Of a DNA stretch of 64,000 nucleotides, positions 2,323-21,115 are shown piece after piece. The notes below the pieces were generated by a model that saw nothing but the letters and a program-made list of their open reading frames with translations, was not told the origin of the DNA and did not search any database. Every line of letters begins with the position of its first letter. The stretch's first letter is position 1. This stretch comes from Deltaproteobacteria bacterium (lineage in GTDB: Bacteria > UBA10199 > SPLOWO2-01-44-7). The stretch spans positions 15,611 through 79,610 of the forward strand of contig JAUSII010000035.1 in NCBI GenBank assembly GCA_030648035.1, given 5' to 3'. The translations under genes and the position numbers were made by a program.

Positions 2323-2334
2323 TGATCCGTATCA
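2323..2334. promoter_or_regulatory. FNR/Crp-type palindrome TGATccgtATCA
   Basis: Exact TGAT-N4-ATCA with a...t flanks, 80 nt upstream of the Cyc2-like ATG. Same motif as sites at 13205, 14433, 18526, 18538 and 47644. Confidence 0.5.
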
Positions 2335-2414: not shown

Positions 2415-3689
2415 ATGAAAAAGTTATTAGCGGTTCTTGGAACCGTCATGATGGTCTGGGCAATATTGGGAATTGGCCGTGAGGCACAAGCTGTTTCCCA
2501 GTGGGCACGGAAGTATAAAGTTAATTGTCAGACATGCCACACCGCTTTTCCGCGTCTGACGTATTTCGGCGAGAAGTTTCAAAGAAACGGTTACCAGATG
2601 CCGGATACGGAAGATGGTGATGAGGTGGGGAAGGAAAAAATCGGCGACAATCTTTTTATAGACGTGGTAAATGACTTTTTTGGTGCCCGCATGTCTGTTT
2701 CTCCGGCGACTATCACGACAAACGGATTGAAAGAGCACAATGCGGAAGGGACACTTCGCACAAAACTCAGCTTTGGAACAACGGATTGGCTTCAGTTTTT
2801 CACAGCCGGTAGTGTTTTCAAGGATGCCTCCATCTTTATTGAAACAGAGATTGGCAATACCTCGATCAAGAACAACTGGTTTTATCTGACCTACAACAAC
2901 ATTCTAAAAGGAGAGGGTTTTGGCAATCTGCTCAATTTGCGGGTTGGCAAACTCTCTGTTTTGAACTGGTTTCCGCAAAGCGGTCGTTTGAGAATGATAC
3001 CCAATATCAATATTGAGGGTTTGAATAATGTAAAATCCTCGGGTGGTGCACCCACGACTGTTACAGTTCAGGATCAGGTCAACTTTTCCAGTCCCGAAGC
3101 CGGTCTGGAACTCTTTGGTTATAAGGGACCTTTCCTTTATTCTGCGGGTGTGACCAATGGTGCTGGTATTACGGATGACAACCAATTCAAGAATGTTTTT
3201 GGAACACTTCGCATGGAAACCACGGGTGGGCCCATTGAAGGGAGCTCTGTTGCTGGTTCGGGCTATTGGGGAACGAACACCGGCTATACGGGTCTTTCCA
3301 CTCGCAAGGATCGATTCTGGCGCTGGGGTGCAGCAGCCAATCTTCGCTATAAAAAATGGGATGTTATCGGAAGTTATTTCTTCCAGCACGACAACAACTG
3401 GACATTGGCTTCCACGGGTCCTCTGGTTAACAAAAGCAAGATTCTTTCAGGACAGGTCGGTTATCTGATCGACCCGCTCTGGTTTGCCGCCTTGCAGTAT
3501 GACTATGTGACCGATTCGTTTAAAAACAGCACGACTGTTAATTCAAACTACTATAACAAAGTTTCTCCATCCATCTGGTATATGCCACGCGAGAATATGC
3601 GCATCGGTTTTGTGAATCGTTGGGAGTTGAGAGGAAGACCCGGTGGACGTCAGCAGGAGTTTCTGTTTAACGTCCGGTTCATGTTATAA
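2415..3689 (+). CDS. Cyc2-like fused monoheme cytochrome c-porin (outer-membrane candidate iron oxidase)
   Basis: Signal peptide (MKKLLAVLGTVMMVWAILGIGREAQA). A single N-terminal CQTCH followed by FPRLTYFGEKFQRNGY. About 380 aa of Gly/Tyr/Asn-rich alternating beta-strand sequence ending in RF-ML. GGGGGAGG SD. Architecture matches fused cytochrome-porins. Confidence 0.55.
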   Translation: MKKLLAVLGTVMMVWAILGIGREAQAVSQWARKYKVNCQTCHTAFPRLTYFGEKFQRNGYQMPDTEDGDEVGKEKIGDNLFIDVVNDFFGARMSVSPATITTNGLKEHNAEGTLRTKLSFGTTDWLQFFTAGSVFKDASIFIETEIGNTSIKNNWFYLTYNNILKGEGFGNLLNLRVGKLSVLNWFPQSGRLRMIPNINIEGLNNVKSSGGAPTTVTVQDQVNFSSPEAGLELFGYKGPFLYSAGVTNGAGITDDNQFKNVFGTLRMETTGGPIEGSSVAGSGYWGTNTGYTGLSTRKDRFWRWGAAANLRYKKWDVIGSYFFQHDNNWTLASTGPLVNKSKILSGQVGYLIDPLWFAALQYDYVTDSFKNSTTVNSNYYNKVSPSIWYMPRENMRIGFVNRWELRGRPGGRQQEFLFNVRFML

Positions 3690-3712
3690 GGGTGTTTGAA
3701 TGAGAAGGTTTG

Positions 3713-3756
3713 AAAATCCCCACAGAGGCGTTCTCTGTGGGGATTTTATTTTTTTA
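3713..3756 (+). terminator. Rho-independent terminator after the Cyc2-like gene
   Basis: Perfect 15-bp stem AAAATCCCCACAGAG / CTCTGTGGGGATTTT (3713-3727 / 3733-3747), 5-nt loop, followed by a T-run to 3756. Confidence 0.85.
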
Positions 3757-3822
3757 GAGATCTCTTTTCTGAAAACGCGTCAATCCGAAAGCGTTAAACC
3801 ATAAAAGAAATTTCAAAAGCAC

Positions 3823-3834
3823 TGACCCGTATCA
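3823..3834. promoter_or_regulatory. One-mismatch FNR/Crp-type box TGACccgtATCA
   Basis: 62 nt upstream of the decaheme cytochrome ATG. Same CCGT spacer as the box at 2323. Confidence 0.3.
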
Positions 3835-3896
3835 GCTTGTCGGATGATTGCCTTTGTGATACTTCCCCCCTCGAAATCAATCGTAAGGAGAAATTT

Positions 3897-4844
3897 ATGG
3901 GGGAGATGAAAAGGTGTTTCGTTCTTGTTTGCTTGTCTGTTTTCGTTTTTTCGACACAGGGTGCCGCCGCTTCCAATAAAACCAAATCCAAAAAAGTAGC
4001 TGTTTCTTCTTCTCCCTCTGGCCCTGTTATGGTGGGGGATTCCGTCTGTCAAGCCTGCCATCAAGATCAGTTTGTGAAATTCGGAAAAACCTTGATGGGC
4101 AAATATCTTTCCCAGAAGACAAAATCGGGAAATGAATCGTTTTCTTGTGAAACCTGTCACGGCCCCGGCAACCTCCATGCAGAAGCGGGGGGTGGTAGGG
4201 GGGTTGGCGGTCTCATTACGTTTGGCAAGGGGTCCACAACACCGGTTGAAAAACAGAATGCGGTTTGCCTTCAGTGCCATGAACAGGGAGATCGCCTGCT
4301 TTGGAAGGGGAGTTCACATCAGGCCAGGGATGTAGCCTGTACCAGCTGTCACACTGTCATGGAAAAAATATCGCCGCACGCACAGCTCGCCAAAACCAGC
4401 GAGATAGAAACCTGTGGCCAATGTCATGAACAGAAACGGGCACAGCAGATGCGGTTTTCGCACATGCCTGTGCGCGAGGGTAAGATGACCTGCACCAGTT
4501 GCCACAACCCTCATGGCACTCTGACTGAAAAATTGCTGAAGAGCACCTCTGCCAATGAAAACTGCTACAGTTGCCATACGGAAAAACGGGGCCCCTTTCT
4601 CTGGGAACATCCGCCTGTGATGGAAAATTGCATCAACTGCCACGATCCGCACGGCAGTAATCATGAAAAAATGCTCAAGTTGCCCAAACCACGATTGTGT
4701 CAACAGTGCCACGATGAGTCAAGGCACCCGACCAACCCACAAAGCTTGGGCGCAACAAGAACTTTGTTCGGTCGTTCGTGCAGTAACTGCCATTTTAATA
4801 TTCATGGCAGTAATCATCCATCGGGTTCTGCTTTCACCCGGTAG
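3897..4844 (+). CDS. Periplasmic decaheme c-type cytochrome, MtrA/DmsE/PioA/MtoA family
   Basis: Ten CxxCH motifs (CQACH, CETCH, CLQCH, CTSCH, CGQCH, CTSCH, CYSCH, CINCH, CQQCH, CSNCH) in about 315 aa. Signal peptide present. AAGGAGA SD before ATG 3897. A large barrel gene follows directly. Confidence 0.85.
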   Translation: MGEMKRCFVLVCLSVFVFSTQGAAASNKTKSKKVAVSSSPSGPVMVGDSVCQACHQDQFVKFGKTLMGKYLSQKTKSGNESFSCETCHGPGNLHAEAGGGRGVGGLITFGKGSTTPVEKQNAVCLQCHEQGDRLLWKGSSHQARDVACTSCHTVMEKISPHAQLAKTSEIETCGQCHEQKRAQQMRFSHMPVREGKMTCTSCHNPHGTLTEKLLKSTSANENCYSCHTEKRGPFLWEHPPVMENCINCHDPHGSNHEKMLKLPKPRLCQQCHDESRHPTNPQSLGATRTLFGRSCSNCHFNIHGSNHPSGSAFTR

Positions 4845-4853
4845 GAGGGGAAT

Positions 4854-7019
4854 ATGCGATTTTATAAAAAATATTTTTCAGTTCTGTTCTGTCTCGTGGG
4901 GATATTATTTTCTATGAGGGCTACAGCCGGACCAGAAGTGTTTAAAATGAAATCAAGCGGCGAGATCAATGCCGGCGGGAGATTTTACCTTCCCGGCCAG
5001 CTTCCCAGAACCCAGAGAGCGGAGTATGAAGAGTATCGCGATCTGCCCCAGCAGTTTTATCTGGAAAATCTCAATTTGAATCTGGAGAGTAAAGATCAAC
5101 AAAAATATCTCGATATCACAGCTACCGAGGCGGGCGCGCAGGATCAGAATTATTCTTTAACTGCTTCGGAATTGGGCCTTTACCGTTTTGAATTCGAATG
5201 GGATCAGACGCCGCACATCTTCTCCACCGATGGTCGGATGCTCGGCACGACAACAAGTCCCGGCGTCTACACTCTTCCGACGCCGCGCCCCACCGGCAAT
5301 GATTATAATAACGCACCCATTATTGACAAAATTGCCGTCCGCTGGGACACCGCCCGCTTTCTCTTCTCCTACGACCTTGGGAAGTATTGGGATGTCAAAG
5401 GGGAATATAAATGGATTGATAAAAGCGGCGATAGACCGATGGGGATGGCTTTTGGGAGTCCCGGGATTAATTTTCGTGAAATTTTGGAACCGGTGGATCA
5501 GAATGTCCACAATGTCCGCTTCACGGCCGGCATGAAAAAGGAAAAATACCAGCTTCAATTCAGCTATGATTTCTCCCTGTTTCAAAACGCCCTGAATCGC
5601 GTCATTTCGGATAACCCTCTTGCGGCTACCAATGGTGCTTTTGTCCCTTCTGCCACCGGAGGCAACAGTATAGAGGCCAGCGGACAGACCTCTCTGCCGC
5701 CTGGCAACATGGCCAACACTTGGAATTTCGCAGGCGGCGTGAATTTGCCGATGAACACCCGTATTAACAGTTCCTTTTCCTACAGTCTGCGCCAGCAGAA
5801 CGATTCTTTTTTGCCGCACACAAACAACCCCAATATTCCTTCAGGCAATCTGGCTCTCCCAAAATCGGGCTTGGATGGACAAGCGATGACACTACTTTAC
5901 AATTTTAGCGTGACCAACCGCCCTGCCGATAGCGTAAAGCTGACAACAAAGTATCGATATTTTCATTTGAGCGATAGCAGCAACATTTTGACTTTTCCAT
6001 CGCATGTTGTGAATGATCGGACATTGGTGAATAGCAGTCTCACCGCAGAACGATTCCCTTTTGATAAACACAACGCAAGTATGGATGCGCACTTTCAGAT
6101 TTTAGATCCACTGGAAGTTACCGTGGGGATGGGATGGGAACGTTGGGACCGTAGCCCCCAACGTGAAGCCCAGACAACCGACGAATATGCACCTCATATT
6201 TCGATGGATATAACACCGTCCGACTGGACCCTGATGCGCGTCACCTATACTCCTTCAATCAAAACTGTTGCCTATTACAATGTGGAGCTGATTCCGGCTC
6301 AAGAAAAACTGATGCGTAAATTTGACGAAGCCAGTCGCGATCGGCAGAAGGTCGATTTTTTTACCCAGTTCACGCCACTGGATATTTTTCAGATAAGTTT
6401 CAACGGAGGCATCATCAACGATTATTATCGAAACTCGGTTTATGGATTGCAGAACAGTCAAACTTGGTCGGTCGGAACCGATTTAAGCTGGAAACCGTTT
6501 GAACCTCTAACTATTTTTGGAGGTTATGTTCGTGAACAATATTCCGCCAGACAGGCTTCTCAGTATCGTGAACCGACTATTTTGGAGAATACGCGCTATG
6601 CTTGGGTAGCCAACACAAACGACATTATTGATACCGTTCGGGTCGGAGTCGATGTGGAGATTATTCCCAACAAACTGACTTGGAGCGGCAATTGGGATCT
6701 TTCACGCGAATGGAACAGAATGTATGCGAATAATCCGCAAACTCCCACAGGAGGAACGGCGGCGCAGAACGCTTCCGCTACGGCGTCTGATTTTCCGGCG
6801 ATCACCAGCACCCTCAACCGTCTGGAATCTGATTTGCGCTACAATATTAACAAATCATGGAATGCCAAAGTGGCCTATGTATTTGACGATTTTCATATCA
6901 ACGATTTTAGAACCAACGGCCTTTTGCCCGCCACGCAAGGCGATATTTTCTTGGGCAACGAGTTGCTCAACTACGCCGCCCATATGGTCGTGATGACTGT
7001 CGGGTATCGGTTTGATTAA
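4854..7019 (+). CDS. MtrB/PioB/MtoB-family decaheme-associated outer-membrane beta-barrel
   Basis: 721 aa with a signal peptide and Tyr/Asn/Ser/Gly-rich beta-strand periodicity throughout. It starts 10 nt after the decaheme gene, with an AGGAGGGG SD. Confidence 0.75.
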   Translation: MRFYKKYFSVLFCLVGILFSMRATAGPEVFKMKSSGEINAGGRFYLPGQLPRTQRAEYEEYRDLPQQFYLENLNLNLESKDQQKYLDITATEAGAQDQNYSLTASELGLYRFEFEWDQTPHIFSTDGRMLGTTTSPGVYTLPTPRPTGNDYNNAPIIDKIAVRWDTARFLFSYDLGKYWDVKGEYKWIDKSGDRPMGMAFGSPGINFREILEPVDQNVHNVRFTAGMKKEKYQLQFSYDFSLFQNALNRVISDNPLAATNGAFVPSATGGNSIEASGQTSLPPGNMANTWNFAGGVNLPMNTRINSSFSYSLRQQNDSFLPHTNNPNIPSGNLALPKSGLDGQAMTLLYNFSVTNRPADSVKLTTKYRYFHLSDSSNILTFPSHVVNDRTLVNSSLTAERFPFDKHNASMDAHFQILDPLEVTVGMGWERWDRSPQREAQTTDEYAPHISMDITPSDWTLMRVTYTPSIKTVAYYNVELIPAQEKLMRKFDEASRDRQKVDFFTQFTPLDIFQISFNGGIINDYYRNSVYGLQNSQTWSVGTDLSWKPFEPLTIFGGYVREQYSARQASQYREPTILENTRYAWVANTNDIIDTVRVGVDVEIIPNKLTWSGNWDLSREWNRMYANNPQTPTGGTAAQNASATASDFPAITSTLNRLESDLRYNINKSWNAKVAYVFDDFHINDFRTNGLLPATQGDIFLGNELLNYAAHMVVMTVGYRFD

Positions 7020-7825
7020 AGATCTCTTTTCTGAAAGCGTTTTAATCCGAAAAAAGTTGGGATAAAAATCCAGAGTCCCAAGGCTGTAAGGCCCAAAGCC
7101 ATTCCGAAAAAATTGCCGAGATATTTTTGGAAGAGGGCCCCCGAATACCCCATCATGGCGGAGAGGTCTATTTTAAGAAGCAGAATCACCCGTGAAAGAT
7201 CGATTGGATTTAAAAAAGTCATCAACAACATGGGGCCTTCCAAGGGGTAGTCGCCGAAAAGCAGAACAACGCCAAAAACAAGGGCATCATAGAGAATAAA
7301 GAAAAAAAACCAGAGCAATAGCATCCAGCCGAAGACCAATTCTTTTTTACGAACGACATTGACCACCCAAAAAGCGATGCTCAAGAAAACAAAGGTCAAA
7401 AGAACACCCAGCAACAATAGCAGTGTGTAGCTTCCAAAGCCGGTTTGTGAAAGGTTCATTTGTAATAAGGATCCGAGCCCCATTCCCAGCAGAAAACTCA
7501 AACTCAATCCGACCCCAAGGCCGATCCATTTTCCCAAAAAGATATCTCTTCTGGAAATGGGGAGTGAGACCAGCATTTCATGGAAGGGCAGTGATTCAGC
7601 AAAAGAAAGACTTCCGAAGACAAGCGAAAAAAGAGGAACCAAAAGCAAAACAAGATTCAGGAGAGAGGCACTGGCTTGCAGGGGATCCGAAGCACCAATG
7701 TAGGTGATGATGCCGCTGAAAAGAAGAAAAGAGAGGGCATAGATCAGAAGCCATTTGTTGCGGATGTTTTCATAAAATTCAAATAATGCGATGGTCGCCA
7801 AGGGGGTATTAAATATTTTTTTCAT
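7016..7825 (-). CDS. nosY: NosY, ABC-2-type permease of the nos maturation system
   Basis: 269-aa polytopic hydrophobic protein. Last gene of the nos string, overlapping nosF by 17 nt. Confidence 0.75.
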   Translation of the reverse strand: MKKIFNTPLATIALFEFYENIRNKWLLIYALSFLLFSGIITYIGASDPLQASASLLNLVLLLVPLFSLVFGSLSFAESLPFHEMLVSLPISRRDIFLGKWIGLGVGLSLSFLLGMGLGSLLQMNLSQTGFGSYTLLLLLGVLLTFVFLSIAFWVVNVVRKKELVFGWMLLLWFFFFILYDALVFGVVLLFGDYPLEGPMLLMTFLNPIDLSRVILLLKIDLSAMMGYSGALFQKYLGNFFGMALGLTALGLWIFIPTFFGLKRFQKRDL

Positions 7826-8537
7826 GATTTTTGGTCGTATTCCAAAATTGGTTGAGTGCTTCTTCCAGTGATGTTGTGTTTTTCTGTTTTTTCAACGCGG
7901 CAGGGGAAATGATAGTATAGACTTTTCCCTCCACCAGCAGGGCCATCTCATCAGCCATGGCGTCGACCTCAGCCATGACATGCGAGGTGAACAAAATAGT
8001 ATTTCCAACCTTCTTTTTTTCACAGATCAGTTGTTTGAGGTAATAAGCCACCTGGGGATCGAGGCCAGAAGTCGGTTCATCGAGAATGAAGAGGGAACTG
8101 TCGAACATGAAACATTGCAGGATGTTGATCTTCTGGGCCATGCCGCCGGAGAGTTCGCCAAAGACCTGATTCCAAAAAAGATTGATTTCCAGATCTTGAA
8201 TGAGCTGGTTTTTGTACAGCCCTTCTTTGTGCCGCAGTTTTTCAAAAAGGGTGATCAACTCTTTAACTTTGATGTGAGGAGGAAATTTCAGAAGTTGAGG
8301 CATATATCCCACCTCGGCTTTGAATCGGTTTGTGCCGACGATCGATTCACCGTTCCAAATGATTTCGGCATTTTTGGATGGCCTGACAATTTCCAATATC
8401 GATTTTAAAATAGTCGTCTTTCCAGAGCCGTTTGGCCCTAAAAGGGCAAAAATATTTCCGCCGGAAATCGTCAGATCGATCTGGTCCAGAATTTTATGGC
8501 CGTTATAACTTTTGCTTAAGTTTTTAATTGTAATCAT
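7809..8537 (-). CDS. nosF: NosF, ABC ATPase
   Basis: Walker A GPNGSGKTT, signature LSGGMAQK, Walker B LFILDEPTSGLD. ATGA overlap with the nosD stop. Confidence 0.85.
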   Translation of the reverse strand: MITIKNLSKSYNGHKILDQIDLTISGGNIFALLGPNGSGKTTILKSILEIVRPSKNAEIIWNGESIVGTNRFKAEVGYMPQLLKFPPHIKVKELITLFEKLRHKEGLYKNQLIQDLEINLFWNQVFGELSGGMAQKINILQCFMFDSSLFILDEPTSGLDPQVAYYLKQLICEKKKVGNTILFTSHVMAEVDAMADEMALLVEGKVYTIISPAALKKQKNTTSLEEALNQFWNTTKNHEKNI

Positions 8538-9784
8538 TTTATCGCCAGAATGGGTTTCATACTTGGAGTTTTGTCTTCCAATGTTTCAGGAGTTAACACA
8601 GGAAATACACGTTCCGCTACATTCAAAAATTCAATAATGGGGGAAGCCAGCAGGGCCACCAGCTCCGGGTAATGATTGATCCAGACGCTGAAAGCTCCCA
8701 TGGGTCGAAAAGGGATGTCGCCTTGCCCGTCGCGATTCAAATCATAGCCCTTGTAGTCGCTCCAATAATTAAATTCAAAGATGTTTAATGGACTTTTAGC
8801 GTTGGTGGAAACATCAAAGTAGTTCGATACGAAATTATTTTTGGTAAAACGATTGGTTTCGGAGTTTCCCAAAATATTGATGGCCCACCCGTTGGCGACA
8901 AAATCATTTCCACTGAAGGTGATGCGGCTGATTTCATCGGCAAAAAGGCCAACGGTGTTTCCGTAGAATGTATTGTCCTTCACGATGCTGTCGCTAATGT
9001 CTTTTAACAAAAGACCATAGGAAGTTCTCCCCCAGCTTTTTTCAAAACGGTTGCCGATCATCTCCACTCCGCGGGAATACATGACGGCAACGCCGGTCTG
9101 ATTTTTGCTGAAGGTGTTGTTTAAATAGCGGTTGCGATGGGAATACATGAAGTGGAGCCCATAGCGGATGTTAAGGCGGCTTATGTTGGATTCAATCAGG
9201 GAATCTCCACTGAATTCTATATAAATGCCATCCCGGTGGTTTTCAAAAAGATTGTTCCTGATGGTGATATTTTTTGAAGACCATAGATGAACGCCGTTAC
9301 CGCCGGAAACCTCACTTAAGGCATTGCCGTGGGCTTTGTTCCCCTCAACCCGGCAGGTATCCACCTTTGCCAGATAGATGGAATAGGTGTTGTTTTCAAA
9401 CCGGTTATTTTGAAGGGTGCAATTTTTGGCTTCTTCCGCACGAATGCCGGCGAATTCAGCAATATAACTTGCGCCACTGTTTTGAATGACAAAGCCTTCT
9501 ATCGTTACAGTGTCAGCGCGTATCCAGAAAACATTTCCTTCCTTGAGGCCATCGACAATGGGGATGCCGATGCCAACCAGATGCAGGGGTTTGCGAATGA
9601 CCACGGTCCCCTCCCGATATTCGCCTGTATGCACCCGAAGAGTATCGCCCTCTTTGGCCTGTTCAACAGCCTGACGGATAGAGCGAATGGGACAGGCAGG
9701 ACAAACCTCCAATATCGCAGCACTGCCGGGTAGGGTTAAAAATAAAAACCCGAAGAGCGTCATGAAAGACAAAAATAGTTTCAT
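8534..9784 (-). CDS. nosD: NosD, periplasmic parallel beta-helix copper-insertion accessory protein
   Basis: Signal peptide and repeated beta-helix turns (NNRFENNTYSIYL, GNKAHGN, IRNNLFENHRDGIY, NNTFSKNQTGVAV, DNTFYGNTVGLF). ATG 9784 overlaps the nosL stop (ATGA). Confidence 0.8.
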   Translation of the reverse strand: MKLFLSFMTLFGFLFLTLPGSAAILEVCPACPIRSIRQAVEQAKEGDTLRVHTGEYREGTVVIRKPLHLVGIGIPIVDGLKEGNVFWIRADTVTIEGFVIQNSGASYIAEFAGIRAEEAKNCTLQNNRFENNTYSIYLAKVDTCRVEGNKAHGNALSEVSGGNGVHLWSSKNITIRNNLFENHRDGIYIEFSGDSLIESNISRLNIRYGLHFMYSHRNRYLNNTFSKNQTGVAVMYSRGVEMIGNRFEKSWGRTSYGLLLKDISDSIVKDNTFYGNTVGLFADEISRITFSGNDFVANGWAINILGNSETNRFTKNNFVSNYFDVSTNAKSPLNIFEFNYWSDYKGYDLNRDGQGDIPFRPMGAFSVWINHYPELVALLASPIIEFLNVAERVFPVLTPETLEDKTPSMKPILAIK

Positions 9785-10206
9785 GGATTGTTTGGATGTA
9801 TCCATTCGCCGCCCGATCCCTTTTGGGCTTGCGTAAAATCTTCCATGCTGGAGTAGGCGGAAAGATATCCACCCATGGGAGAGGGGATGTTTTTACTTTT
9901 GAGAATAAACGCCTTTTCCAACCGGATCCATTTTTCGGGATGCAAAAAATCAGTCACCCAGCGGCTCTGAATCTCTTTCGAATGCTGAACAGCCCATTCA
10001 AACAGACATTCGATGGAATCAAAGAAATGGGGTTTTCCCTTGAGAGAAAGAATCTGTGTTTTGAAACGCATCTCTACAATCCCCATCTTGCAATGTTCAC
10101 AGAGGTGTTCGTTTGCCCGGATGTCGACCGGTTGTGAGCGGCCGCAGGCGGTAAACAGAAAGACCATCAAGAACAAGAGGATCGATTTTTTTAAAATGAG
10201 TTTCAC
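9781..10206 (-). CDS. nosL: NosL copper-chaperone lipoprotein
   Basis: Lipobox LFTAC, CEHCKM metal motif and SPMGG motif. The GTG start overlaps the nosB stop (GTGA). Confidence 0.7.
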   Translation of the reverse strand: MKLILKKSILLFLMVFLFTACGRSQPVDIRANEHLCEHCKMGIVEMRFKTQILSLKGKPHFFDSIECLFEWAVQHSKEIQSRWVTDFLHPEKWIRLEKAFILKSKNIPSPMGGYLSAYSSMEDFTQAQKGSGGEWIHPNNP

Positions 10207-10790
10207 GCCCTCTTTTTAAATCTTTCTGAATAAAGAATGTAGGATAAAATTATCCCGATGAGTAGAAGCGAAATTCCTCCGATATGGGGCCAACTGCAAG
10301 ATTCGATATTGAGGATCTGTTTGCATCCGAGGATGGGCGGCTGGTAGGCCATTCCTGGAATCGAGATGGGGGCTTCCGGGTTGAGATTGTGACCGTAGTT
10401 GTATTCCCATCTCCAAAAATCATAAAAACCGGCGGTGCCGACCAGGGCCAGATTAATCAATCCTGCCCAGACCAGAAAACGGCGCGGCCACAAAAAAGTC
10501 ACGAGAGCCCCTGCAATCATATAACCCAGGAGATAGGGCATGAACTGCAGTTCGGGTATCGATTCCTCCACAATCGGGGCCATGCCGATGTAGTGGTTCA
10601 GAATGTTGATGTTCTTGAGATCGAATTGCGCATGTCCGGTAATTTTGTTGACCCAGATATGCATTCCCATCCCCTCCGGATATTGCGGAGCGACGAGGCG
10701 AATAGACCAGAGCGGAGTAAAACAGGCCGCGATCAGTAATAGACCGACCAAAAGGACAAGAAACCGGTTTGGGGTCGAAAGTTTTTTCAC
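10203..10790 (-). CDS. nosB: NosB-like integral membrane protein (the gene found directly downstream of clade II nosZ)
   Basis: Several hydrophobic helices (FLVLLVGLLLIAACF, YLLGYMIAGALVTFLW, LINLALVGTAGFY, ISLLLIGIILSYILY). A GTG at 10790 overlaps the nosZ stop codon (10790-10792) by 1 nt; the track ATG at 10853 would overlap nosZ by 64 nt. Confidence 0.5.
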   Translation of the reverse strand: MKKLSTPNRFLVLLVGLLLIAACFTPLWSIRLVAPQYPEGMGMHIWVNKITGHAQFDLKNINILNHYIGMAPIVEESIPELQFMPYLLGYMIAGALVTFLWPRRFLVWAGLINLALVGTAGFYDFWRWEYNYGHNLNPEAPISIPGMAYQPPILGCKQILNIESCSWPHIGGISLLLIGIILSYILYSERFKKRA

Positions 10791-12697
10791 TATGGAGTCA
10801 CGCGCAAATATTGTTGCATCTCCTGATGCAAGGCCGAACAAAAATCGGTGCAATAAAAGGGGAAAATGCCCACTTTTTTTGCATCAAACCGGAGTGTCTT
10901 GGTTTGTCCCGGCATGAGAAGAATATTGGGTGTGTTGGCCCCCTGAACGGCAAAACCGTGATCGATATCGTAATCCTGTTCGAGATTGGTGATGTGAAAA
11001 AAGACAGTGTCGCCTACTTTTGCTTCCACCACATCGGGTTTGAAGTGCGAACGGATGGAGGTCATGTAGACATCGACCACATTTCCGTTACGAACCACTT
11101 TGGCATCATCCTCTTTTTTGGTGGCGAAAACATTTTGATTCTCTTCCAGAGAATAAATTTTCTGTGCCTTCTCAGCCAGCAAGCTGGCTGGAACGCCTTG
11201 TGCATAGTGCGGTTCTCCAACCATCGGAAAATCGAGAAGCATCTTCATTTTGGAGCCGCTGATGTCGTACAATTGGGCGCTTTGGCTGACTGCGGGACCG
11301 ACAGGAAGATAGCGATCCTTCGTGATTTTATTCAGAGAGAGCATGTATTTCGGAAAGGGTTTGGCTGAATCACCGCCGGCAATACTCAAATGGCCAATGC
11401 TGTAATAGGCTGGAACGCGATCAACCACTTCCCAGCTTCCCAGTTTCCATTTGATGATTTCTGAGCTGATGAAACACGAGGTGTAGGCATAACCTTTGCC
11501 GTCAAATTCGGTATGCAATGGTCCCAGGCACGGTTTTTGGACTTCACCGGCTAGAGTCGATTCATATTTTAATACCGGTATTCCGTCGATTTCTTTGATG
11601 ACATTGGTTTTATCCTCAATGGCTTTAAGCATTTTTTTAAAAGAGTGGACTGGAATAACAGTGGCCAGCTTGCCGCCGCCCACGATGTATTCGCCAGTCG
11701 GGTCGACATCGGAGCCGTGCGGGCTTTTGGGTGTGGGTAAATAATAGAGAACGCCGGAACAATCTTTGGGATCCAGCATTTTTACACCGCTTCTTTTTTC
11801 GGAGACGGTCGCATTATTTTCCGGATTGAAGTTGTTGTAGTAGGTGCCAGAAAAATCTTTGGCCTTGCCCTGGTCGATGCACTGCTTGGCCCGCACCCAG
11901 TTGAAGGCGGCAATGTAATCTTTGTCGTTCTTGGAGGCTTCAATCTCGAGCATTTTATAAGCCTGTTCGGTATTGTAGGTGCTGAAAAAACACCAGTCGT
12001 GCGACGGCCCTTTGCCGCAATGGGCGATGTCGTAATCAAAGCCAGGAACTATAATCTGTCCGTCAATGGACAAACGACCTGTTTGGGGATCGACTTTAAC
12101 CAATGTGATCGTTCCCTTGAAGGCCCCTTTTTCGGCATCCGCAACGGGAATGTCTCTTTGTGGAATGGGGACAGAAAAACGGGTGGTCGCCATCAGATAT
12201 TCGGTATTTTCAGTCAAAAAGGGAGAGGCATGATTGCCGGCGCTGTTGGGGATCTCGATAATTTCAGCCGTCTCGAATGTTTTGAGATCGAGGCGCGCAA
12301 TGCGCGGCGTGTTATTGCCGTTTATGAAAAGCCATCGACCATCTTGTACCCCTTTGGTGAGAGAGACTTCCGGGTGGTGGGCATCGTCCCACGGGACAAA
12401 ACCGTGGGAGGTCATCAGCATGTTTTTGGATTCTTCATCATACCCATAGCCGCTTTCCGGAAACTGTGAAAACACGGGGATGATTTTAAGCAACCGGGCC
12501 GAGGGGATTCCATAAACAGAAACTTGTCCGCTGTAGCCGCCTGACATAAACCAGTAGAATTCGTCTTTTTCGCCGGGTGCCACATAAACTCTTTGTGCGG
12601 CATCGCCCGCCAGAACATTTACAGCCTTGTTTCCCTTGCCGCAGGCAAGGCCTGTGGCTAAAGGCAAAATCAACAAAAAACCAAAAATGTTTTTCAT
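10790..12697 (-). CDS. nosZ: Nitrous-oxide reductase NosZ, Sec-type (clade II)
   Basis: 635 aa. The N-terminal signal has no twin-arginine (MKNIFGFLLILPLATGLACG). C-terminal CuA motif CTDFCSALHQEM follows DIDHGFAVQG. Followed by nosB-L-D-F-Y. Confidence 0.9.
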   Translation of the reverse strand: MKNIFGFLLILPLATGLACGKGNKAVNVLAGDAAQRVYVAPGEKDEFYWFMSGGYSGQVSVYGIPSARLLKIIPVFSQFPESGYGYDEESKNMLMTSHGFVPWDDAHHPEVSLTKGVQDGRWLFINGNNTPRIARLDLKTFETAEIIEIPNSAGNHASPFLTENTEYLMATTRFSVPIPQRDIPVADAEKGAFKGTITLVKVDPQTGRLSIDGQIIVPGFDYDIAHCGKGPSHDWCFFSTYNTEQAYKMLEIEASKNDKDYIAAFNWVRAKQCIDQGKAKDFSGTYYNNFNPENNATVSEKRSGVKMLDPKDCSGVLYYLPTPKSPHGSDVDPTGEYIVGGGKLATVIPVHSFKKMLKAIEDKTNVIKEIDGIPVLKYESTLAGEVQKPCLGPLHTEFDGKGYAYTSCFISSEIIKWKLGSWEVVDRVPAYYSIGHLSIAGGDSAKPFPKYMLSLNKITKDRYLPVGPAVSQSAQLYDISGSKMKMLLDFPMVGEPHYAQGVPASLLAEKAQKIYSLEENQNVFATKKEDDAKVVRNGNVVDVYMTSIRSHFKPDVVEAKVGDTVFFHITNLEQDYDIDHGFAVQGANTPNILLMPGQTKTLRFDAKKVGIFPFYCTDFCSALHQEMQQYLRVTP

Positions 12698-12712: not shown

Positions 12713-13150
12713 TTATTTTGCGCCGTCGTTCTGCCGGAAATATTCCAGAATAGAACGGGCCTCTTCTTGCGTTACATTTTGAAAGGTCATTTGCGTAAAA
12801 TGAGTGGCCAACAGCTCTCTGGCGACAGGGTCTTTCTCTGTCATCTCCTGCGGGTTCAGGATCATGTTCATGATCCACTCCGGGGTGCGTCTTTGTGTGA
12901 CTCCTTTGATGGCGGGCCCCACGTATTTTTCACTCAATTTATGGCAGGCACTGCATTTGTTTTGAAATAGTTGCTGGCCTTTGGCCGCCAATGTCACATC
13001 CATTGGTCCGACGGTCATACTTTGAACCGGGCCGACCCCTTTGTTGCTCGCCGCTTCAGGCGCCGCCTCTTTTTTGCCACTGCAAGCGGTAAAGTTTAAA
13101 GCAACAAGAGCTAAAACTAAAATAGAAAAAGAACGAGTGGGTTTAAGCAT
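12713..13150 (-). CDS. Monoheme c-type cytochrome lipoprotein, likely electron donor to NosZ
   Basis: Lipobox NFTAC, a single CSACH, and distal Met candidates (MNMILNPQEM). AAGGAGA SD before ATG 13150. Sits 15 nt upstream of nosZ. Confidence 0.7.
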   Translation of the reverse strand: MLKPTRSFSILVLALVALNFTACSGKKEAAPEAASNKGVGPVQSMTVGPMDVTLAAKGQQLFQNKCSACHKLSEKYVGPAIKGVTQRRTPEWIMNMILNPQEMTEKDPVARELLATHFTQMTFQNVTQEEARSILEYFRQNDGAK

Positions 13151-13204
13151 GGTGTTTCTCCTTTTGTGGTCTGCGAATAAGATGAATTTTAACAAGGAGC
13201 AACA

Positions 13205-13216
13205 TGATCTACATCA
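13205..13216. promoter_or_regulatory. FNR/Dnr/NnrR-type palindrome TGATctacATCA
   Basis: Exact palindromic arms with a...t flanks, centred in the 119-nt divergent gap. It lies about 54 nt from both the cyt c/nosZ operon start (13150) and the nnrS start (13270). Confidence 0.6.
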
Positions 13217-13269
13217 TATTGAAGAGCTTGGAAATGATATTTAAACAGGGAAAGCTTCTGGAGAAATAT

Positions 13270-14430
13270 ATGACTACCGCCAATCGTCAGAGTGATCCAT
13301 ATCAGTGGTTTTTTCCCTTGGGAATTTTTTTTGGTTTGGCAGGGGTCGTGTTGTGGGTGCTATTTGGATTCAAGGTTTTGCCGATGTATCCAACACTTCC
13401 CCATGCCGAAATCATGACAGGCGGTTTTTTGACGGCGATCGTTACCGGTTTTTTAATGACAGCCGTTCCCCGTTTTACCGGAACGCGTTCGGCCGGTCCG
13501 ATCGAAAAATGGACTCTTTTGGTCGTATTTTTGCTGATGTTTGTTACGGCTTTTCGTCCGGATCGTATCTGGTTTCATCTCGGAGGTTTTCTGGCTTTTT
13601 GTCTTTTGATCCGTTTCGGAATTTCCAGACTTCGTGTTTCGGTTTTTAAGCCAGGCCCCCCTTTCGTGCTGGTCGCTTTTGGTATTTTTTCAGGCGTTTG
13701 TTCCTTTGGCCTTTTGTTAGCCAAGGATTTTTATCCCCTGCCTTCGACTTTTGTTTATTTAGCCAGAATGCTTTTGTATTATGGCCTCTTTTTCTTTCCA
13801 GCGTTGGGTGTGGGAACACAGCTCATCCCATCCATTCTAGGGGTGGCGGTTCCCGTTGCAAAACCGATCGGAGCGACGCCGTTTCATCAACCTATCGGTC
13901 GCATGAAGGTCTATTTTTTATTTTTAGTTTATGGCGCGGGGTTATTTTTCTCCTTTGTTCTGGAGGCGCTCGGATTTTTTTTCACCGCACGTTTATTAAG
14001 GGCCGTTCTTGTCAGTGCCATTTTATTCATTCATTGGCATTTGCATCGCAGACCGAAGCCGATTGTGTTGTTAACGGCTGCTCTTTGGCTGAGTGGGTGG
14101 ATGATGTTTGTTGGAGTCTGGGTGGTGGCTTTGTGGCGCGGATTTGCTGTGCATGGAGCGCACATTCTTTTTATTGGCAGTCTCTCTGTTATGATTTTTT
14201 CAGTGATGACCCGCGTTGTTATTTCCCATGGGGGACATAACCCTCAAGTGGAACGAAATTCCAAAGCATTACTGGCGATGCTGATTTTTTTTATGGTTGC
14301 CCTTGTGACCCGTGTGAGTGCGCCGCTGGTTCCAAACTATTATTTTCATTTGGCTTATGCCGCCTTTTTTTGGATTGCGGGAGTGGTTTGCTGGATGATA
14401 ATATTTTTTCCGAAAATAATCCGAAAATAA
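13270..14430 (+). CDS. nnrS: NnrS-family membrane protein (NO-stress-associated heme-copper protein)
   Basis: About 386-aa polytopic protein with HAEIMTGGFLTAIVTGFLMTAVPRFTG, matching the NnrS signature (H-x-H/E-M...GFLLTA-P-W/F-TG). Located beside nos genes. Confidence 0.7.
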   Translation: MTTANRQSDPYQWFFPLGIFFGLAGVVLWVLFGFKVLPMYPTLPHAEIMTGGFLTAIVTGFLMTAVPRFTGTRSAGPIEKWTLLVVFLLMFVTAFRPDRIWFHLGGFLAFCLLIRFGISRLRVSVFKPGPPFVLVAFGIFSGVCSFGLLLAKDFYPLPSTFVYLARMLLYYGLFFFPALGVGTQLIPSILGVAVPVAKPIGATPFHQPIGRMKVYFLFLVYGAGLFFSFVLEALGFFFTARLLRAVLVSAILFIHWHLHRRPKPIVLLTAALWLSGWMMFVGVWVVALWRGFAVHGAHILFIGSLSVMIFSVMTRVVISHGGHNPQVERNSKALLAMLIFFMVALVTRVSAPLVPNYYFHLAYAAFFWIAGVVCWMIIFFPKIIRK

Positions 14431-14432
14431 TA

Positions 14433-14444
14433 TGATTTGCATCA
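14433..14444. promoter_or_regulatory. FNR/Crp-type palindrome TGATttgcATCA
   Basis: Exact motif 26 nt upstream of the fnr/crp-1 ATG. The position suggests autoregulation. Confidence 0.5.
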
Positions 14445-14470: not shown

Positions 14471-15181
14471 ATGGTTAAAGCACCCCCCGTTCATTGTCAG
14501 ACCTGTCAGAGTCGCGGAGAGGGTATTTTCTGCGATTTAAGCGCGGAACATCTCAAAGAGCTTGATGCGGCAAAGACGACAAACCATTACAAGCCGCATC
14601 AGGTTATTTTTCATGAGGGGAATCAACCTCAGGGGCTGCATTGTGTTTCCTCCGGAAAGATAAAAATCTACAAGATGGATGCACAGGGGCACCAACAGAT
14701 TGTCCGTCTGGCGGGGCCGGGTGACGTGATGGGGTATCGTTGCCTGCTCACGAATGAAGGTTATTCCGCTACGGCGGAAACATTGGAAGAGGCGACAATC
14801 TGCTTTATAAATAAAGAGACTTTTTTGCATATCATCGAAACACATCCTGTAACCGCTTTTCATATCCTTTCCTCTCTGGCCAAAGATCTGGGGCGCGCTG
14901 AAAATCAGACCATGAACATGGTTCATAAAAATATCAGGGAGAGGTTGGCGGAGTTATTTCTCGTTTTCCACAAAAAATATGGAAAAAAGACAAGTCAGGG
15001 GATTGAATTGGACATCCTTCTTTCTCGCGAAGAGATGGCAGAGCTCATCGGCACCACTCAGGAATCGGTTATTCGTCTGATCAGCGAATTTAAACAGGAC
15101 GGCCTGATTGCGGTGGATGGCCGGCATATCACCCTTTTGAATATCAAAAAAATAATGGACCTCGCCAACCTTCCCGATTAA
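14471..15181 (+). CDS. Crp/Fnr-family transcription regulator, paralog 1
   Basis: cNMP-binding-type beta-roll and C-terminal HTH (REEMAELIGTTQESVIRLISEF). N-terminal Cys cluster C9-x2-C12-x8-C21 plus conserved internal Cys (GYRCLL), as in Fe-S-sensing FNR proteins. Confidence 0.8.
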   Translation: MVKAPPVHCQTCQSRGEGIFCDLSAEHLKELDAAKTTNHYKPHQVIFHEGNQPQGLHCVSSGKIKIYKMDAQGHQQIVRLAGPGDVMGYRCLLTNEGYSATAETLEEATICFINKETFLHIIETHPVTAFHILSSLAKDLGRAENQTMNMVHKNIRERLAELFLVFHKKYGKKTSQGIELDILLSREEMAELIGTTQESVIRLISEFKQDGLIAVDGRHITLLNIKKIMDLANLPD

Positions 15182-16467
15182 GGCCGCAATTCGTAAATCA
15201 TCCACTCTGAAAAACTTGTCGGTCCGGCATGCTTGGGCTGGTCTCCATCCCAGAGTTCAAACGAAACGTAGCCCACATCTGTAAGGGGGGCTTTGTTGTC
15301 ATTCGAAGGAGCGCGGGATCGTTTCAAAATAACGTGCCATTCCCCCTGGTCATAAACGCCATTGGCCAAAACACCGTTGTCTTTCCATTGCCAGAGGTCG
15401 ATCTTTTGGGAAGAGCTTCCAATTCCCAAATAGGGGAGATCTGCGGGGTTCGAAATTTTGTCCATCGGAAGTTGAATGGCCACCCCGTCATTTTGATTGG
15501 AATCTCTGTCGGCTTTGTCGTCTGCCCATCGGAGATAAAAAGCGACCTCTTCCTCTGTATGAAGCGCCTGCACTGTTATCCACTCTGTATTGCCCGGCTC
15601 ATGCCAAAGCGGCTTTAAAAAGACGGGAATTTTGGGAGACTTGGCCCAGGCTTCTTCCTTATAGTTCATGGGAATTTTGCCGTTTATCTTGTTGATGATG
15701 AGCAGGTTTCTTTTCGGATTGGAAGGATCGTAGTCCTTGGGAAACGGTTTTTGTATCGACTGGATGTAGTGGACCAGCGACCACAACTCTTTTTTGGTGA
15801 AAGTCTGTTCATAGCTGGGCATCGGCGTTCCGGGAACGCCAATCATCAGTGTGCGATAGATATCTCTGGGAAGATTGCCCCATTTGAGTGGTCCTTCTGT
15901 CAGATCGCGTGGTGCAATGCGGTCGCCCCAGACATCTTTTAAAACAATGGCTCCGGGACCATCCCCTTTTCCTCCCGGACCATGGCAGGCAATACAGCCC
16001 CTCTTCTCATACAATTGTCTTCCTTCTTGTATCGATTCGGGTGTTGTCTTGGTCTCTTCTGGAATATCGATCGGTGCCCCCTGTTTTTCGCTCGAGAGCT
16101 TGGGGGAAAGGGTTTTGAAATAGGTCAAAATGGAATACCAATCGTTTGTTTTGAGCACATCCCAGCCCGGCATGGAGGAGCCGGGGATTCCCATTTTCAT
16201 GGTTTGCAAAAGATCGAGGTCAGTGGGTATCAGTCCGCGATGGGTCCGGTATTTGAAAATGCCGATGGTGAAATCTCTCGGCTTCGGCCAGAGCAAACTG
16301 GCGGCGGGTCCTTTTCCATCCCCCTGATTGCCGTGGCAGGAGGCGCAGTGGACTGTATACAGTGCTTTGCCGCGTTGCATGGAAACTTCGCTGCTGGAAT
16401 CGCGGCACGATTTTTGGCAAGAGGTTGTGAGTAGAAGCAGAGCGACCAGCAAAAGATTTTTTTTCAT
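15178..16467 (-). CDS. Diheme cytochrome c fused to an EB_dh/DOMON-like (ethylbenzene-dehydrogenase gamma-type) heme-binding domain
   Basis: Signal/lipoprotein-like N-terminus and two class-I-type sites (HCASCHGNQGDGKGP, GCIACHGPGGKGDGPG). The C-terminal part reads ITVQALHTEEEVAFYLRWADDKADRD...DGVAIQLP...IDLWQWK, typical of EB_dh-like domains. Confidence 0.55.
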   Translation of the reverse strand: MKKNLLLVALLLLTTSCQKSCRDSSSEVSMQRGKALYTVHCASCHGNQGDGKGPAASLLWPKPRDFTIGIFKYRTHRGLIPTDLDLLQTMKMGIPGSSMPGWDVLKTNDWYSILTYFKTLSPKLSSEKQGAPIDIPEETKTTPESIQEGRQLYEKRGCIACHGPGGKGDGPGAIVLKDVWGDRIAPRDLTEGPLKWGNLPRDIYRTLMIGVPGTPMPSYEQTFTKKELWSLVHYIQSIQKPFPKDYDPSNPKRNLLIINKINGKIPMNYKEEAWAKSPKIPVFLKPLWHEPGNTEWITVQALHTEEEVAFYLRWADDKADRDSNQNDGVAIQLPMDKISNPADLPYLGIGSSSQKIDLWQWKDNGVLANGVYDQGEWHVILKRSRAPSNDNKAPLTDVGYVSFELWDGDQPKHAGPTSFSEWMIYELRP

Positions 16468-16484: not shown

Positions 16485-17162
16485 TTATTTCAGCTCATGA
16501 GGCTTGTGGCAACTGATGCACTCCGTATCTTTTGGAATAGGCGGGTGCAATTTTTCTGTCTGAATTCTGTCGTGGCAGGTTTTACAAGAAGCCGTTGTTG
16601 GTTTCAAGTCTTCTCCCTTCGCCAGAAAGTTGTGGCATTGCAGACAGTGGATAAAAGACATTTTGCTGTTCCCTTCCATTTTATCTGGATGACATCCGGC
16701 GCAACTGTCGACCGGGCGAACGAACTCGTGAAGCCCTTTCATGTGACATTCCAGGCAATCGATGCCAGCTTTTTCAAAATGGACTTTGTGTCCGGCGGTG
16801 TTTCCGACCAGTTTCCACTGTGTGTCCTGGCTCAGGTGGCATTGTGCGCAGACTTTTTGATCGAGATTGGGATGGTGCACGACAGACTTTGGTTGTTCGG
16901 TGATATACATCCAGACTTGGTGAAGACTCTGCCATTTGGTCTGTTTGTGGCATTCATGACAGCTCACCATGTGATGGGGGCTCTCCTGCCATTTTTTGAA
17001 GGGTTCATCCATGGTATGACACGATTGGCAAAAACGGGGATCATGTTCCATGTAATCGTAGCCTTTATAGGCACCCACGGCGAAGAGGGCTACAAGGACA
17101 ATAACCGCGATCAATATTATTTTAAGTTTTTTGGAAATCTTTCTGATTTCAGTTCGCATCAT
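16485..17162 (-). CDS. Membrane-anchored octaheme c-type cytochrome (NapC/NirT/NrfH-like candidate quinol dehydrogenase)
   Basis: One N-terminal TM helix (IILIAVIVLVALFAVGAY) and eight CxxCH motifs (CQSCH, CHECH, CAQCH, CLECH, CAGCH, CLQCH, CKTCH, CISCH). ATG 17162 avoids a 56-nt overlap with hemY. Confidence 0.7.
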   Translation of the reverse strand: MMRTEIRKISKKLKIILIAVIVLVALFAVGAYKGYDYMEHDPRFCQSCHTMDEPFKKWQESPHHMVSCHECHKQTKWQSLHQVWMYITEQPKSVVHHPNLDQKVCAQCHLSQDTQWKLVGNTAGHKVHFEKAGIDCLECHMKGLHEFVRPVDSCAGCHPDKMEGNSKMSFIHCLQCHNFLAKGEDLKPTTASCKTCHDRIQTEKLHPPIPKDTECISCHKPHELK

Positions 17163-18525: not shown

Positions 18526-18549
18526 TGATGTGTATCATGATTTATATCA
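18526..18549. promoter_or_regulatory. Two abutting FNR/Crp-type boxes, TGATgtgtATCA followed by TGATttatATCA
   Basis: Two exact motifs back to back in the 108-nt divergent gap between hemY (start 18486) and the giant cytochrome (start 18595). A perfect TATAAT lies at 18574-18579, 33 nt from the centre of box 2. Confidence 0.6.
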
Positions 18550-21084: not shown

Positions 21085-21115
21085 ATGAAAAAGGAATGCA
21101 AGGGGAGGGACGCGG

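Follow-up and report, generated by a model that had tools for sequence, protein, structure and literature searches.

A Cyc2-like cytochrome-porin and an MtoAB-type conduit inserted beside the nitrous oxide reductase operon of an uncultured groundwater bacterium

We analysed a 64-kb stretch of contig JAUSII010000035.1 (the window) from an uncultured groundwater bacterium of the lineage UBA10199, in which genes for outer-membrane electron conduits lie beside a nitrous oxide (N2O) reductase (nos) operon. Two cassettes, a gene for a monohaem cytochrome fused to a porin (cyc2-like) and a gene pair for an MtrA/MtoA-type decahaem cytochrome and its outer-membrane barrel (mtoA and mtoB; mtoAB), were inserted into an older junction at which the genes for ErpA and NosY converged (coordinates in Table 1). 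As an explanation of the whole locus, we propose with moderate confidence that an FNR-type regulator switches the conduits, that the Cyc2-like protein would oxidise Fe(II) and pass electrons inward, and that the N2O reductase NosZ would be one possible sink. The gene identities, the protein architecture, the insertions and the shared promoter box are established by the analysis; which way electrons flow, and whether they are coupled to N2O, is inferred.

Cyc2 proteins have been defined by a signal peptide and one CXXCH haem motif near the N-terminus, by the motif AxPxFAR[Q/K][T/Y] upstream of CXXCH and a PxL four residues downstream of it, and by a porin of at least 365 amino acids (aa) whose 16 strands are fused to the cytochrome domain (Keffer et al. 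2021, PMC8406198). The 424-aa product of the cyc2-like gene has a Sec-type leader (MKKLL...AQA, followed by VSQW; called by inspection of the sequence) that ends in AQA. Its sole CXXCH is CQTCH at residues 38-42, directly followed by TAFPRLTYFGEKFQRNGY, and the PxL is present as PRL, with P46 invariant and L48 conserved in at least 90% of the family. An AlphaFold2 model based on 58 of 114 homologues (predicted local distance difference test score, pLDDT, 90.3; predicted template-modelling score, pTM, 0.85) consists of a small helical N-terminal domain bearing the haem motif and a barrel of about 16 long antiparallel strands after residue 89. The best Foldseek matches of this model are the 16-strand porins PorB, OmpF, Omp32 and OprO, and OprO/OprP is the template reported for Cyc2 (PMC8406198). 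The fused cytochrome-porin that an earlier note had read from the letters alone is thereby borne out, with the 16-strand barrel and N-terminal haem domain it expected of a structure prediction, and so is the terminator it assigned to this gene.

The protein departs from Cyc2 in the string upstream of the haem motif, which reads AVSQWARKY-KVN-CQTCH-TAF-PRL in register with the canonical AIPAFARKY-xxS-CxTCH-xxx-PxL. Proline is replaced by serine and phenylalanine by tryptophan, so that AxPxFAR[Q/K][T/Y] is not matched. AVSQWARKY is at the same time the consensus of a whole sub-clade (hereafter SQW), in which Q29 and R32 are invariant and the signature is [S/A]Q[W/F]xRKY as opposed to the published PxFAR[Q/K][T/Y]. 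As the published motif served as the inclusion filter of the Cyc2 reference tree (Keffer et al. 2021, PMC8406198), this difference in signature means that SQW proteins would be dropped by it.

Searches of Pfam and NCBIfam gave no match for the 424-aa protein, and a sequence profile search of the PDB returned nothing meaningful. A word-indexed search recovered the 114 homologues, from metagenome-assembled genomes (MAGs) labelled Deltaproteobacteria (Rifle and other groundwater sites), Elusimicrobia, Zixibacteria, Nitrospinae/Nitrospinota, Chlamydiae and others. The family profile, run exhaustively against 1.84 billion representative sequences, gave 3375 matches at E ≤1e-3; [S/A]Q[W/F]xRKY occurs in the top ~60, and the canonical PxFAR[K/Q][Y/T] prevails from about E 1e-73 downward, in full-length alignments. 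Consistent with this, hhalign aligned the family with 60 canonical-motif Cyc2 proteins over 397 columns (probability 100, E 3e-72), and a profile built from canonical-motif proteins only scored 272 bits on the Cyc2-like protein and matched no other of the 197 open reading frames (ORFs) of the window. Cluster-1-like and cluster-2-like profiles, used like this one as proxies for the FeGenie Cyc2 cluster models, scored 32 and 49 bits, respectively, the Cyc2-like protein again being the sole match among these ORFs. Among the canonical-motif matches a Gallionellales MAG could be named. Named Cyc2 anchors, found by scanning species genomes with a degenerate DNA motif, scored on the family profile as follows: Nitrospira defluvii/Nitrospirales about 205 bits, Ignavibacterium 97, the FARKY-type copy of Mariprofundus 71, Sideroxydans 41, Acidithiobacillus 38 and cluster-1 Zetaproteobacteria 34. 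By neighbour joining, the SQW sequences formed a monophyletic clade within the FARKY-type portion of the family, with the Nitrospira group as its sister.

The homology to canonical Cyc2 is thus secure, and the protein is a member of the Cyc2 superfamily that belongs to a distinct, divergent sub-clade. The name Cyc2 given to it earlier therefore holds for architecture and full-length homology; by the published PxFAR[Q/K][T/Y] it is not a canonical Cyc2, and it belongs to a separate clade nearest to Nitrospira-type, cluster-3-like sequences. It shares with Mariprofundus Cyc2PV-1, Acidithiobacillus ferrooxidans Cyc2 and Leptospirillum Cyt572 the signal peptide, the single CXXCH, the PxL, a length above 365 aa and the 16-strand porin, but differs from them in its clade signature, and the clade is distant both from the Sideroxydans and Zetaproteobacteria of cluster 1 and from the Acidithiobacillus of cluster 2. 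Unlike the named proteins, the SQW clade has uncultured MAGs as hosts and is known from sequences alone; a literature search found no paper that ties UBA10199 to Cyc2 or describes the SQW variant. We favour an inward, Fe(II)-oxidising direction for the Cyc2-like protein because all biochemically tested members of the family are Fe(II) oxidases (PMC8406198) and because a single haem in a 16-strand porin would suit dissolved Fe2+.

The second cassette encodes the ten-haem MtrA/MtoA-type cytochrome and the 721-aa MtrB/PioB-type barrel that had been proposed for it. The decahaem protein, whose likely start is ATG 3897 with an AAGGAG ribosome-binding site ahead (TTG 3837 is less likely), contains ten CXXCH motifs, scores 266.6 bits on TIGR03508 (cutoff 192.2) and aligns at all ten haem motifs with MtrA of the Shewanella baltica MtrCAB complex (PDB 6R2Q chain A; E 9e-71). 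The PF11854 (MtrB_PioB) match of the barrel is full-length (284.5 bits; cutoff 23), and the barrel also matches MtrB of 6R2Q (chain B) over residues 165-718 (E 1.3e-9), whereas its score on NCBIfam TIGR03509 (217.9 bits) lies below the cutoff of 240.05. The PDB name table labels 6r2q_A 'Cystathionine beta-synthase' and the MtrB chain 'Uncharacterized protein'; the sequences are those of S. baltica MtrA and MtrB. The two genes are 9 nucleotides (nt) apart on the same strand, and the pairing is kept in 56 of 80 related loci. The ten aligned haem motifs and the order decahaem cytochrome, then barrel, are those of MtoAB of Sideroxydans lithotrophicus ES-1, PioAB of Rhodopseudomonas palustris TIE-1 and Shewanella MtrAB (6R2Q). 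Unlike these, the window pair has a barrel below the NCBIfam cutoff and lies beside an insertion scar, a Cyc2-like gene and nos. The base composition of mtoAB (49% GC, flanks 45-46%) is within the range of the window and was therefore not used as evidence of foreign origin.

The earlier note had taken the absence of an adjacent MtrC as the sign of an Fe(II)-oxidising layout. The family of MtrC and OmcA (PF22113) gave no Pfam match above threshold in the window, and MtrC is missing from the operon here and in the related loci L005, L014, L180 and L181 (we number related loci with the prefix L); the exception among the 80 decahaem loci is an 11-haem gene directly after mtoB in three loci of Terriglobia. 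The operon resembles Mto and Pio in having no MtrC, and differs from them in having no gene for MtoD/CymA or PioC. The lack of MtrC here and in the nearest relatives points to inward flow, but does not fix the direction as the note had supposed. The decahaem protein shows 47% identity to S. baltica MtrA and equally 47% to its counterpart in the nitrate-reducing Fe(II) oxidiser Ca. Ferrigenium straubiae, so that identity to MtrA or MtoA says nothing on direction and was discarded as an indicator. From its sequence, the direction of electron flow through MtoAB is not readable.

The neighbouring operon could be confirmed as a clade II nos operon, with NosD, NosL, an ABC ATPase, an ABC-2 permease, a cytochrome c and a NosZ that scores 913 bits on the Sec-dependent model TIGR04246 against 349 bits on the TAT-type model. 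The nosB-like gene, which has no family match, adjoins nosZ in 78 of 80 loci. The stop codons of mtoB and nosY do overlap at TTAA (7016-7019), as first noticed. In the 64 kb of the window we saw no nir or nor genes, nos being the only such operon. The longest ORF of the adjoining NnrS-family gene, from 13204, takes in the box at 13205-13216, and its real start is therefore probably further downstream.

How the cassettes came to lie at this flank can be read by comparison with the nearest relative found, the sister MAG C24_metabat.bin.128 (NosZ 77%, ErpA 83%, TPR protein 75% and QueG 67% identical). There, nosC-nosZ-nosB-nosL-nosD-nosF-nosY converges on ErpA-TPR-QueG with ~21 nt between the stops, where the window has the order QueG-TPR-ErpA, cyc2-like, mtoA, mtoB, nosY. 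The cyc2-like gene of the sister MAG adjoins ccmFEDCBA, and it is likewise found beside ccm genes in three other relatives; in L180, mtoAB lies between QueG and TPR. Since the ErpA/nosY junction of the sister is empty and its cyc2-like gene sits beside ccm, cyc2-like and mtoAB were inserted in the window. A unique direct repeat with a 33-nt core (3735-3790 and 6997-7052, 3262 nt apart) flanks mtoAB exactly; in its left copy the 3' end of nosY, stop codon included, survives in frame as a relic, and the repeat is an insertion scar. In the simplest history, ErpA and nosY were convergent neighbours, cyc2-like then arrived with its promoter and terminator, and mtoAB came last, entering the last 33 nt of nosY together with its own box and duplicating them. 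The cyc2-like/mtoA junction is unlikely to be mis-assembled, since an independent Logan contig also runs across it; the mtoB/nosY junction is known from this contig alone. The contig is also seen in SRR13727527. A 694-aa ORF (55244-57328) with no Pfam match adjoins ccmA in the window, approximately where relatives keep cyc2-like.

FNR-type boxes had been proposed ahead of cyc2, the decahaem gene and nos. The strict consensus TTGAT-N4-ATCAA, allowing up to one mismatch, is found at none of these promoters and occurs 4 times in the window against 5 expected; as it was unenriched and off the promoters, it was dropped in favour of the core palindrome. The latter, TGAT-N4-ATCA, is enriched, with 9 occurrences where 1.41 are expected (none of 100 shuffles reached 9), and eight of the nine sites lie 30-90 nt upstream of genes. 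What stands of the proposal is thus the core palindrome before cyc2-like and nos and a one-mismatch version before the decahaem gene. The box of the decahaem gene (TGACCCGTATCA) is near-identical to that of cyc2-like (TGATCCGTATCA), and both units have a TGAY-N4-ATCA box of their own. Among related loci, such a box precedes cyc2-like in 10 and mtoA in 2 (background 0.049 per kb), with a perfect box at -51 of mtoA in L180; another precedes nosC in L265, and a one-mismatch version does so in L263. The boxes of cyc2-like and mtoA are older than the move to the nos flank, for relatives have them where the two genes originally lay.

Two regulators of the appropriate type are encoded in the window. 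Both score best on Fnr/FnrL models (94-98 bits, below the cutoff of 228) and both have an N-terminal C-x2-C-x8-C (C9, C12, C21) and a central cysteine. Boxes at 14433 and at 47622/47644 precede the two genes, which suggests autoregulation in both cases. Co-regulation of the conduits with nos, raised earlier as a possibility, is plausible given that one box family is common to all units and is conserved before cyc2-like and mtoA in relatives; its control by an oxygen-responsive FNR-type factor is a well-supported prediction.

We then surveyed the 80 closest nosZ loci (10 kb around each), the 80 closest decahaem loci and 52 cyc2-like loci. Neither cyc2-like nor mtoAB nor other cytochromes of this island were found at any of the 80 nosZ loci, neither nosZ nor cyc2-like at any of the 80 decahaem loci, and nosZ, as a partial match, near one of the 52 cyc2-like genes. 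Conserved synteny with nos was accordingly rejected as evidence of coupling. These counts bear on the explanation that the cassettes lie beside nos by chance: a site at which two genes converge can take an insertion without harm, the cassettes brought their own promoters, and Fe(II) would be oxidised microaerobically through oxidases encoded elsewhere, with no flow to NosZ. We regard this as a tentative but serious possibility. Besides the empty junction of the sister genome and boxes that pre-date the move, it can draw on an aa3-type oxidase gene adjoining cyc2-like in L003. It accounts less readily for two successive insertions of electron-transfer cassettes at one nos flank and for a single box family shared by nos, cyc2-like, mtoAB and the further conduit described below; moreover, the periplasmic cytochrome pool is shared in practice, which makes some flow to NosZ hard to exclude.

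The surveys tied the two cassettes to each other more closely than to nos. In a MAG of Zixibacteria, cyc2-like, mtoA and mtoB are adjacent, and in one of Elusimicrobia mtoA-mtoB-cyc2-like is followed by genes for cytochrome c, multihaem cytochromes and Rieske/cytochrome b. The latter locus (L005/L006; GCA_001800165.1, 4737-17940) is one co-directional string that starts with ResB/CcsA cytochrome maturation and continues with mtoA, mtoB, cyc2-like, a monohaem cytochrome c, multihaem/cytochrome b and NapC-type cytochromes, and Rieske/cytochrome b/dihaem cytochrome c; judged by its gene content, it is a candidate for a complete chain from the outer membrane to quinone. The pairing of cyc2-like with mtoAB, in varied order, is better evidence of a functional link than anything that ties either of them to nos.

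Around cyc2-like genes, ccm and the genes of bc-type or multihaem complexes recur most often. In addition, feoB-feoA lies directly upstream of cyc2-like in L003 (on the same strand) and in L004, and feoB and dtxR are close to it in L002, L008 and L010. Genes for a DtxR-like repressor and FeoB (26056-28990) likewise accompany the cytochrome island of the window, as they do in L002, L003 and L010. From such neighbours it could be argued that the Cyc2-like protein serves iron acquisition or homeostasis, mainly as a porin that delivers Fe2+ to the periplasm for FeoAB, and is not respiratory. We consider this very improbable: an invariant CXXCH with its haem-stabilising PxL would have no obvious role in a plain channel, ccm and bc-type or multihaem complexes are the commonest neighbours, and the regulation looks FNR-type rather than DtxR/Fur-type.

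Whereas the earlier note had counted two uptake routes, we find three candidate conduits, because a 13-haem lipoprotein with a barrel of its own is encoded 11.5 kb from the MtoAB operon (18595-22955). The note's remark that no surface multihaem cytochrome is adjacent is accordingly right for the operon and wrong for the island. Porin-cytochrome (Pcc) complexes of Geobacter such as OmaB/OmbB/OmcB join a wide barrel to two multihaem cytochromes, a lipoprotein on the cell surface and a periplasmic one. The window module follows the same three-part logic, with multihaem lipoprotein, outer-membrane barrel and periplasmic multihaem cytochrome encoded together, but it has no detectable sequence-family match to Geobacter Pcc, its order is omc-omb-oma, and its lipoprotein carries C-terminal Big_5 domains. 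Neither Pfam nor NCBIfam gave a match for the barrel, and its two partner cytochromes match only generic multihaem and Big_5 domains. The best Foldseek matches of the barrel are the 24-strand usher barrels FimD/PapC, with AlgE and Occ porins also found; the 43 homologues of its family come from this lineage only, and the triplet is conserved in L182. Within the 13-haem gene, an 81-nt direct repeat (19129-19209 and 19429-19509, 75% identity, 300 nt apart) encodes duplicated CxxCH...CxxCH...YPH modules, which means that the cytochrome expanded through tandem duplication.

The third module lends itself to the opposite direction of flow, in which MtoAB, the Pcc-like module and perhaps the Cyc2-like protein would export electrons to Fe(III), Mn(IV) or humics, with N2O as a parallel acceptor. 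The conduits would be induced jointly through the FNR-type boxes and fed from the quinol pool via the bc-type complex and the NrfH-like octahaem cytochrome. In line with this, the lipoprotein, its 22-24-strand barrel and the 7-haem cytochrome form a Geobacter-style three-part module, the octahaem cytochrome and the Rieske/cytochrome b complex are encoded in the same island, and the decahaem protein aligns with Shewanella MtrA as described above. Cluster-3 cyc2 occurs among iron-reducing Geobacter (PMC7005843), the three Terriglobia loci have an 11-haem gene behind mtoB, and FNR-type control is what would be expected of alternative anaerobic acceptors. We nevertheless find this explanation somewhat unlikely. 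No MtrC/OmcA-family protein was detected in the window, a single haem buried in a 16-strand porin seems ill-suited to solids, all tested Cyc2 proteins are oxidases (PMC8406198), and the aa3-type oxidase and FeoAB genes beside cyc2-like in relatives suggest Fe(II)-rich, microoxic niches.

According to the explanation that we prefer, one or both FNR-like regulators, which share the four-cysteine pattern, would at low oxygen jointly switch on cyc2-like, mtoAB, nos and the Pcc-like conduit. The conduits would then exchange electrons between extracellular iron and the periplasmic pool of c-type cytochromes, the Cyc2-like protein handling dissolved Fe2+, and MtoAB and the 13-haem module chelated or solid phases. 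NosZ is a plausible sink because it would be fed from the same pool through its own cytochrome c. It would act as a non-pumping sink or detoxifying route beside other acceptors rather than as a self-sufficient energy metabolism.

Several observations weigh against this explanation. NosZ is periplasmic, and by established bioenergetics electrons that enter at cytochrome c skip the quinol-oxidising, proton-coupling steps. A route from Fe(II) through cytochrome c to NosZ bypasses quinol oxidation and consumes periplasmic protons, and therefore would on its own conserve no energy and build no proton gradient. The 13-haem lipoprotein with its wide barrel is, by analogy, the kind of module that iron reducers use, and the identity of the decahaem protein to MtrA equals that to the Ferrigenium homologue. 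The adjacency to nos is a state derived in this genome by insertions and not a conserved neighbourhood; being peculiar to this genome, it could reflect a permissive insertion site only. Finally, the closest relatives of the Cyc2-like protein are Nitrospira-type, cluster-3-like sequences, and the FARKY-type/cluster-3-like region is functionally the least certain part of the family according to the Cyc2 authors (PMC8406198), while FeGenie rates cluster 3, present in Geobacter iron reducers, as 'probable oxidation, possible reduction' (PMC7005843).

A more specific version would make the host a non-denitrifying N2O reducer that draws electrons from extracellular Fe(II), Fe(II) minerals or electrodes into clade II NosZ, through up to three conduits in one FNR-type regulon, with the pathway caught mid-assembly by stepwise insertion. 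We think that this is rather unlikely to be correct in full. Fe(II) and nitrite yield N2O abiotically, and an ecological link with no direct electron coupling is therefore possible, in which an N2O reducer benefits at the Fe(II)/nitrite interface.

Genomes that combine cyc2, mtoAB and denitrification genes are known from Gallionellaceae (Ca. Ferrigenium straubiae) and from Ca. Siderophilus nitratireducens, and the field's working model for nitrate-reducing Fe(II) oxidisers passes electrons from Fe(II) through cytochrome c to periplasmic N-oxide reductases. The window similarly combines candidate iron oxidases with an N-oxide reductase. It differs from these oxidisers in that the genes are contiguous and share one box family, that nos is alone in 64 kb and that NosZ is of clade II; its host, unlike Gallionellaceae and Ca. 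Siderophilus, is an unrelated uncultured lineage.

Table 1. Features of the window. Positions are those of the 64-kb stretch;., no strand assigned.
Feature	Position	Strand	Remarks
Box TGATCCGTATCA	2323-2334	.	CRP/FNR-type palindrome, ~86 nt upstream of the cyc2-like start codon
cyc2-like	2415-3689	+	Monohaem cytochrome fused to predicted 16-strand porin; 424 aa; SQW sub-clade
Terminator of cyc2-like	3713-3747	+	Intrinsic; 16-bp stem, then T-run
Direct repeat DR1	3758-3790	.	Relic of nosY 3' end; minus strand reads ...FQKRDL*; left flank of mtoAB insertion
Box TGACCCGTATCA, one mismatch	3823-3834	.	~68 nt upstream of decahaem gene, inside inserted segment
mtoA	3897-4844	+	Decahaem cytochrome, MtrA/MtoA/PioA/DmsE family, predicted periplasmic; 315 aa from ATG 3897
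mtoB	4854-7019	+	Outer-membrane barrel, MtrB/PioB family; 721 aa
nosY	7016-7825	-	ABC-2 permease; stop overlaps mtoB stop
Direct repeat DR2	7020-7052	.	Functional nosY 3' end; right flank of mtoAB insertion
nosF	7809-8537	-	ABC ATPase match and operon position
nosD	8534-9805	-	TIGR04247, 437 bits
nosL	9781-10206	-	PF05573
nosB-like	10203-10853	-	Membrane protein; assigned by position and conservation only
nosZ	10790-12697	-	Sec-dependent (clade II); TIGR04246
nos-associated cytochrome c	12713-13150	-	Monohaem; likely start ATG 13150 behind AAGGAG
NnrS family	13204-14430	+	Haem/copper membrane protein; start probably downstream of 13204
Two TGAT-N4-ATCA boxes	13205-13216, 13293-13304	.	Divergent nosC/nnrS control region
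Box and FNR-like regulator	14433-14444 (box), 14471-15181 (gene)	+	Cys at 9, 12, 21 and about 111
Dihaem cytochrome c	15178-16467	-	Fused to EB_dh-type domain; conserved in L180
Octahaem cytochrome	16485-17204	-	NrfH/NapC-like N-terminus; candidate quinone-pool link
Two tandem TGAT-N4-ATCA boxes	18526-18549 (at 18526 and 18538)	.	Upstream of 13-haem gene
13-haem lipoprotein	18595-21084	+	Lipobox FVVGC; C-terminal Big_5 Ig-like domains; candidate surface cytochrome
Outer-membrane beta-barrel	21116-22381	+	421 aa; ~22-24 strands; AlphaFold2 pLDDT 87.9
7-haem cytochrome	22371-22955	+	Predicted periplasmic; third part of Pcc-like module
bc-type complex	22919-26055	+	2-haem and 5-haem cytochromes; Rieske 23961-24443; cytochrome b/dihaem c 24238-26055
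Second FNR-like regulator	47622-48413, including boxes at 47622 and 47644		Gene at 47691; 240 aa; just after hemA

Further along, the window encodes an Rnf complex, two sets of 2-oxoacid/pyruvate:ferredoxin oxidoreductases, malic enzyme and aconitase (32034-45275 and 60145-62421). This set would be compatible with a reductive tricarboxylic acid cycle-type or otherwise ferredoxin-dependent carbon metabolism; ATP-citrate lyase was not seen in the window.

What is new here is the SQW sub-clade of Cyc2, the recurrent pairing of cyc2-like with mtoAB, their stepwise insertion at a nos flank, the shared box and the lineage-specific Pcc-like module. Because motif-filtered surveys would miss the widespread SQW sub-clade, candidate iron oxidases may be more widely distributed than is now estimated, and the co-location of Cyc2-like and MtoAB genes in three phyla bears on the question of how dual iron-oxidation pathways cooperate. 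N2O is a potent greenhouse gas, and organisms with clade II NosZ are its main biological sink. Little is known of what supplies NosZ with electrons in aquifers that are anoxic, rich in iron and poor in carbon, and whether enzymes couple the oxidation of Fe(II) to the reduction of N-oxides is a matter of continuing debate; the locus provides genes, promoters and a regulator with which both can be addressed. If N2O reduction driven by Fe(II) or by electrodes were true of this bacterium, it would be of high interest.

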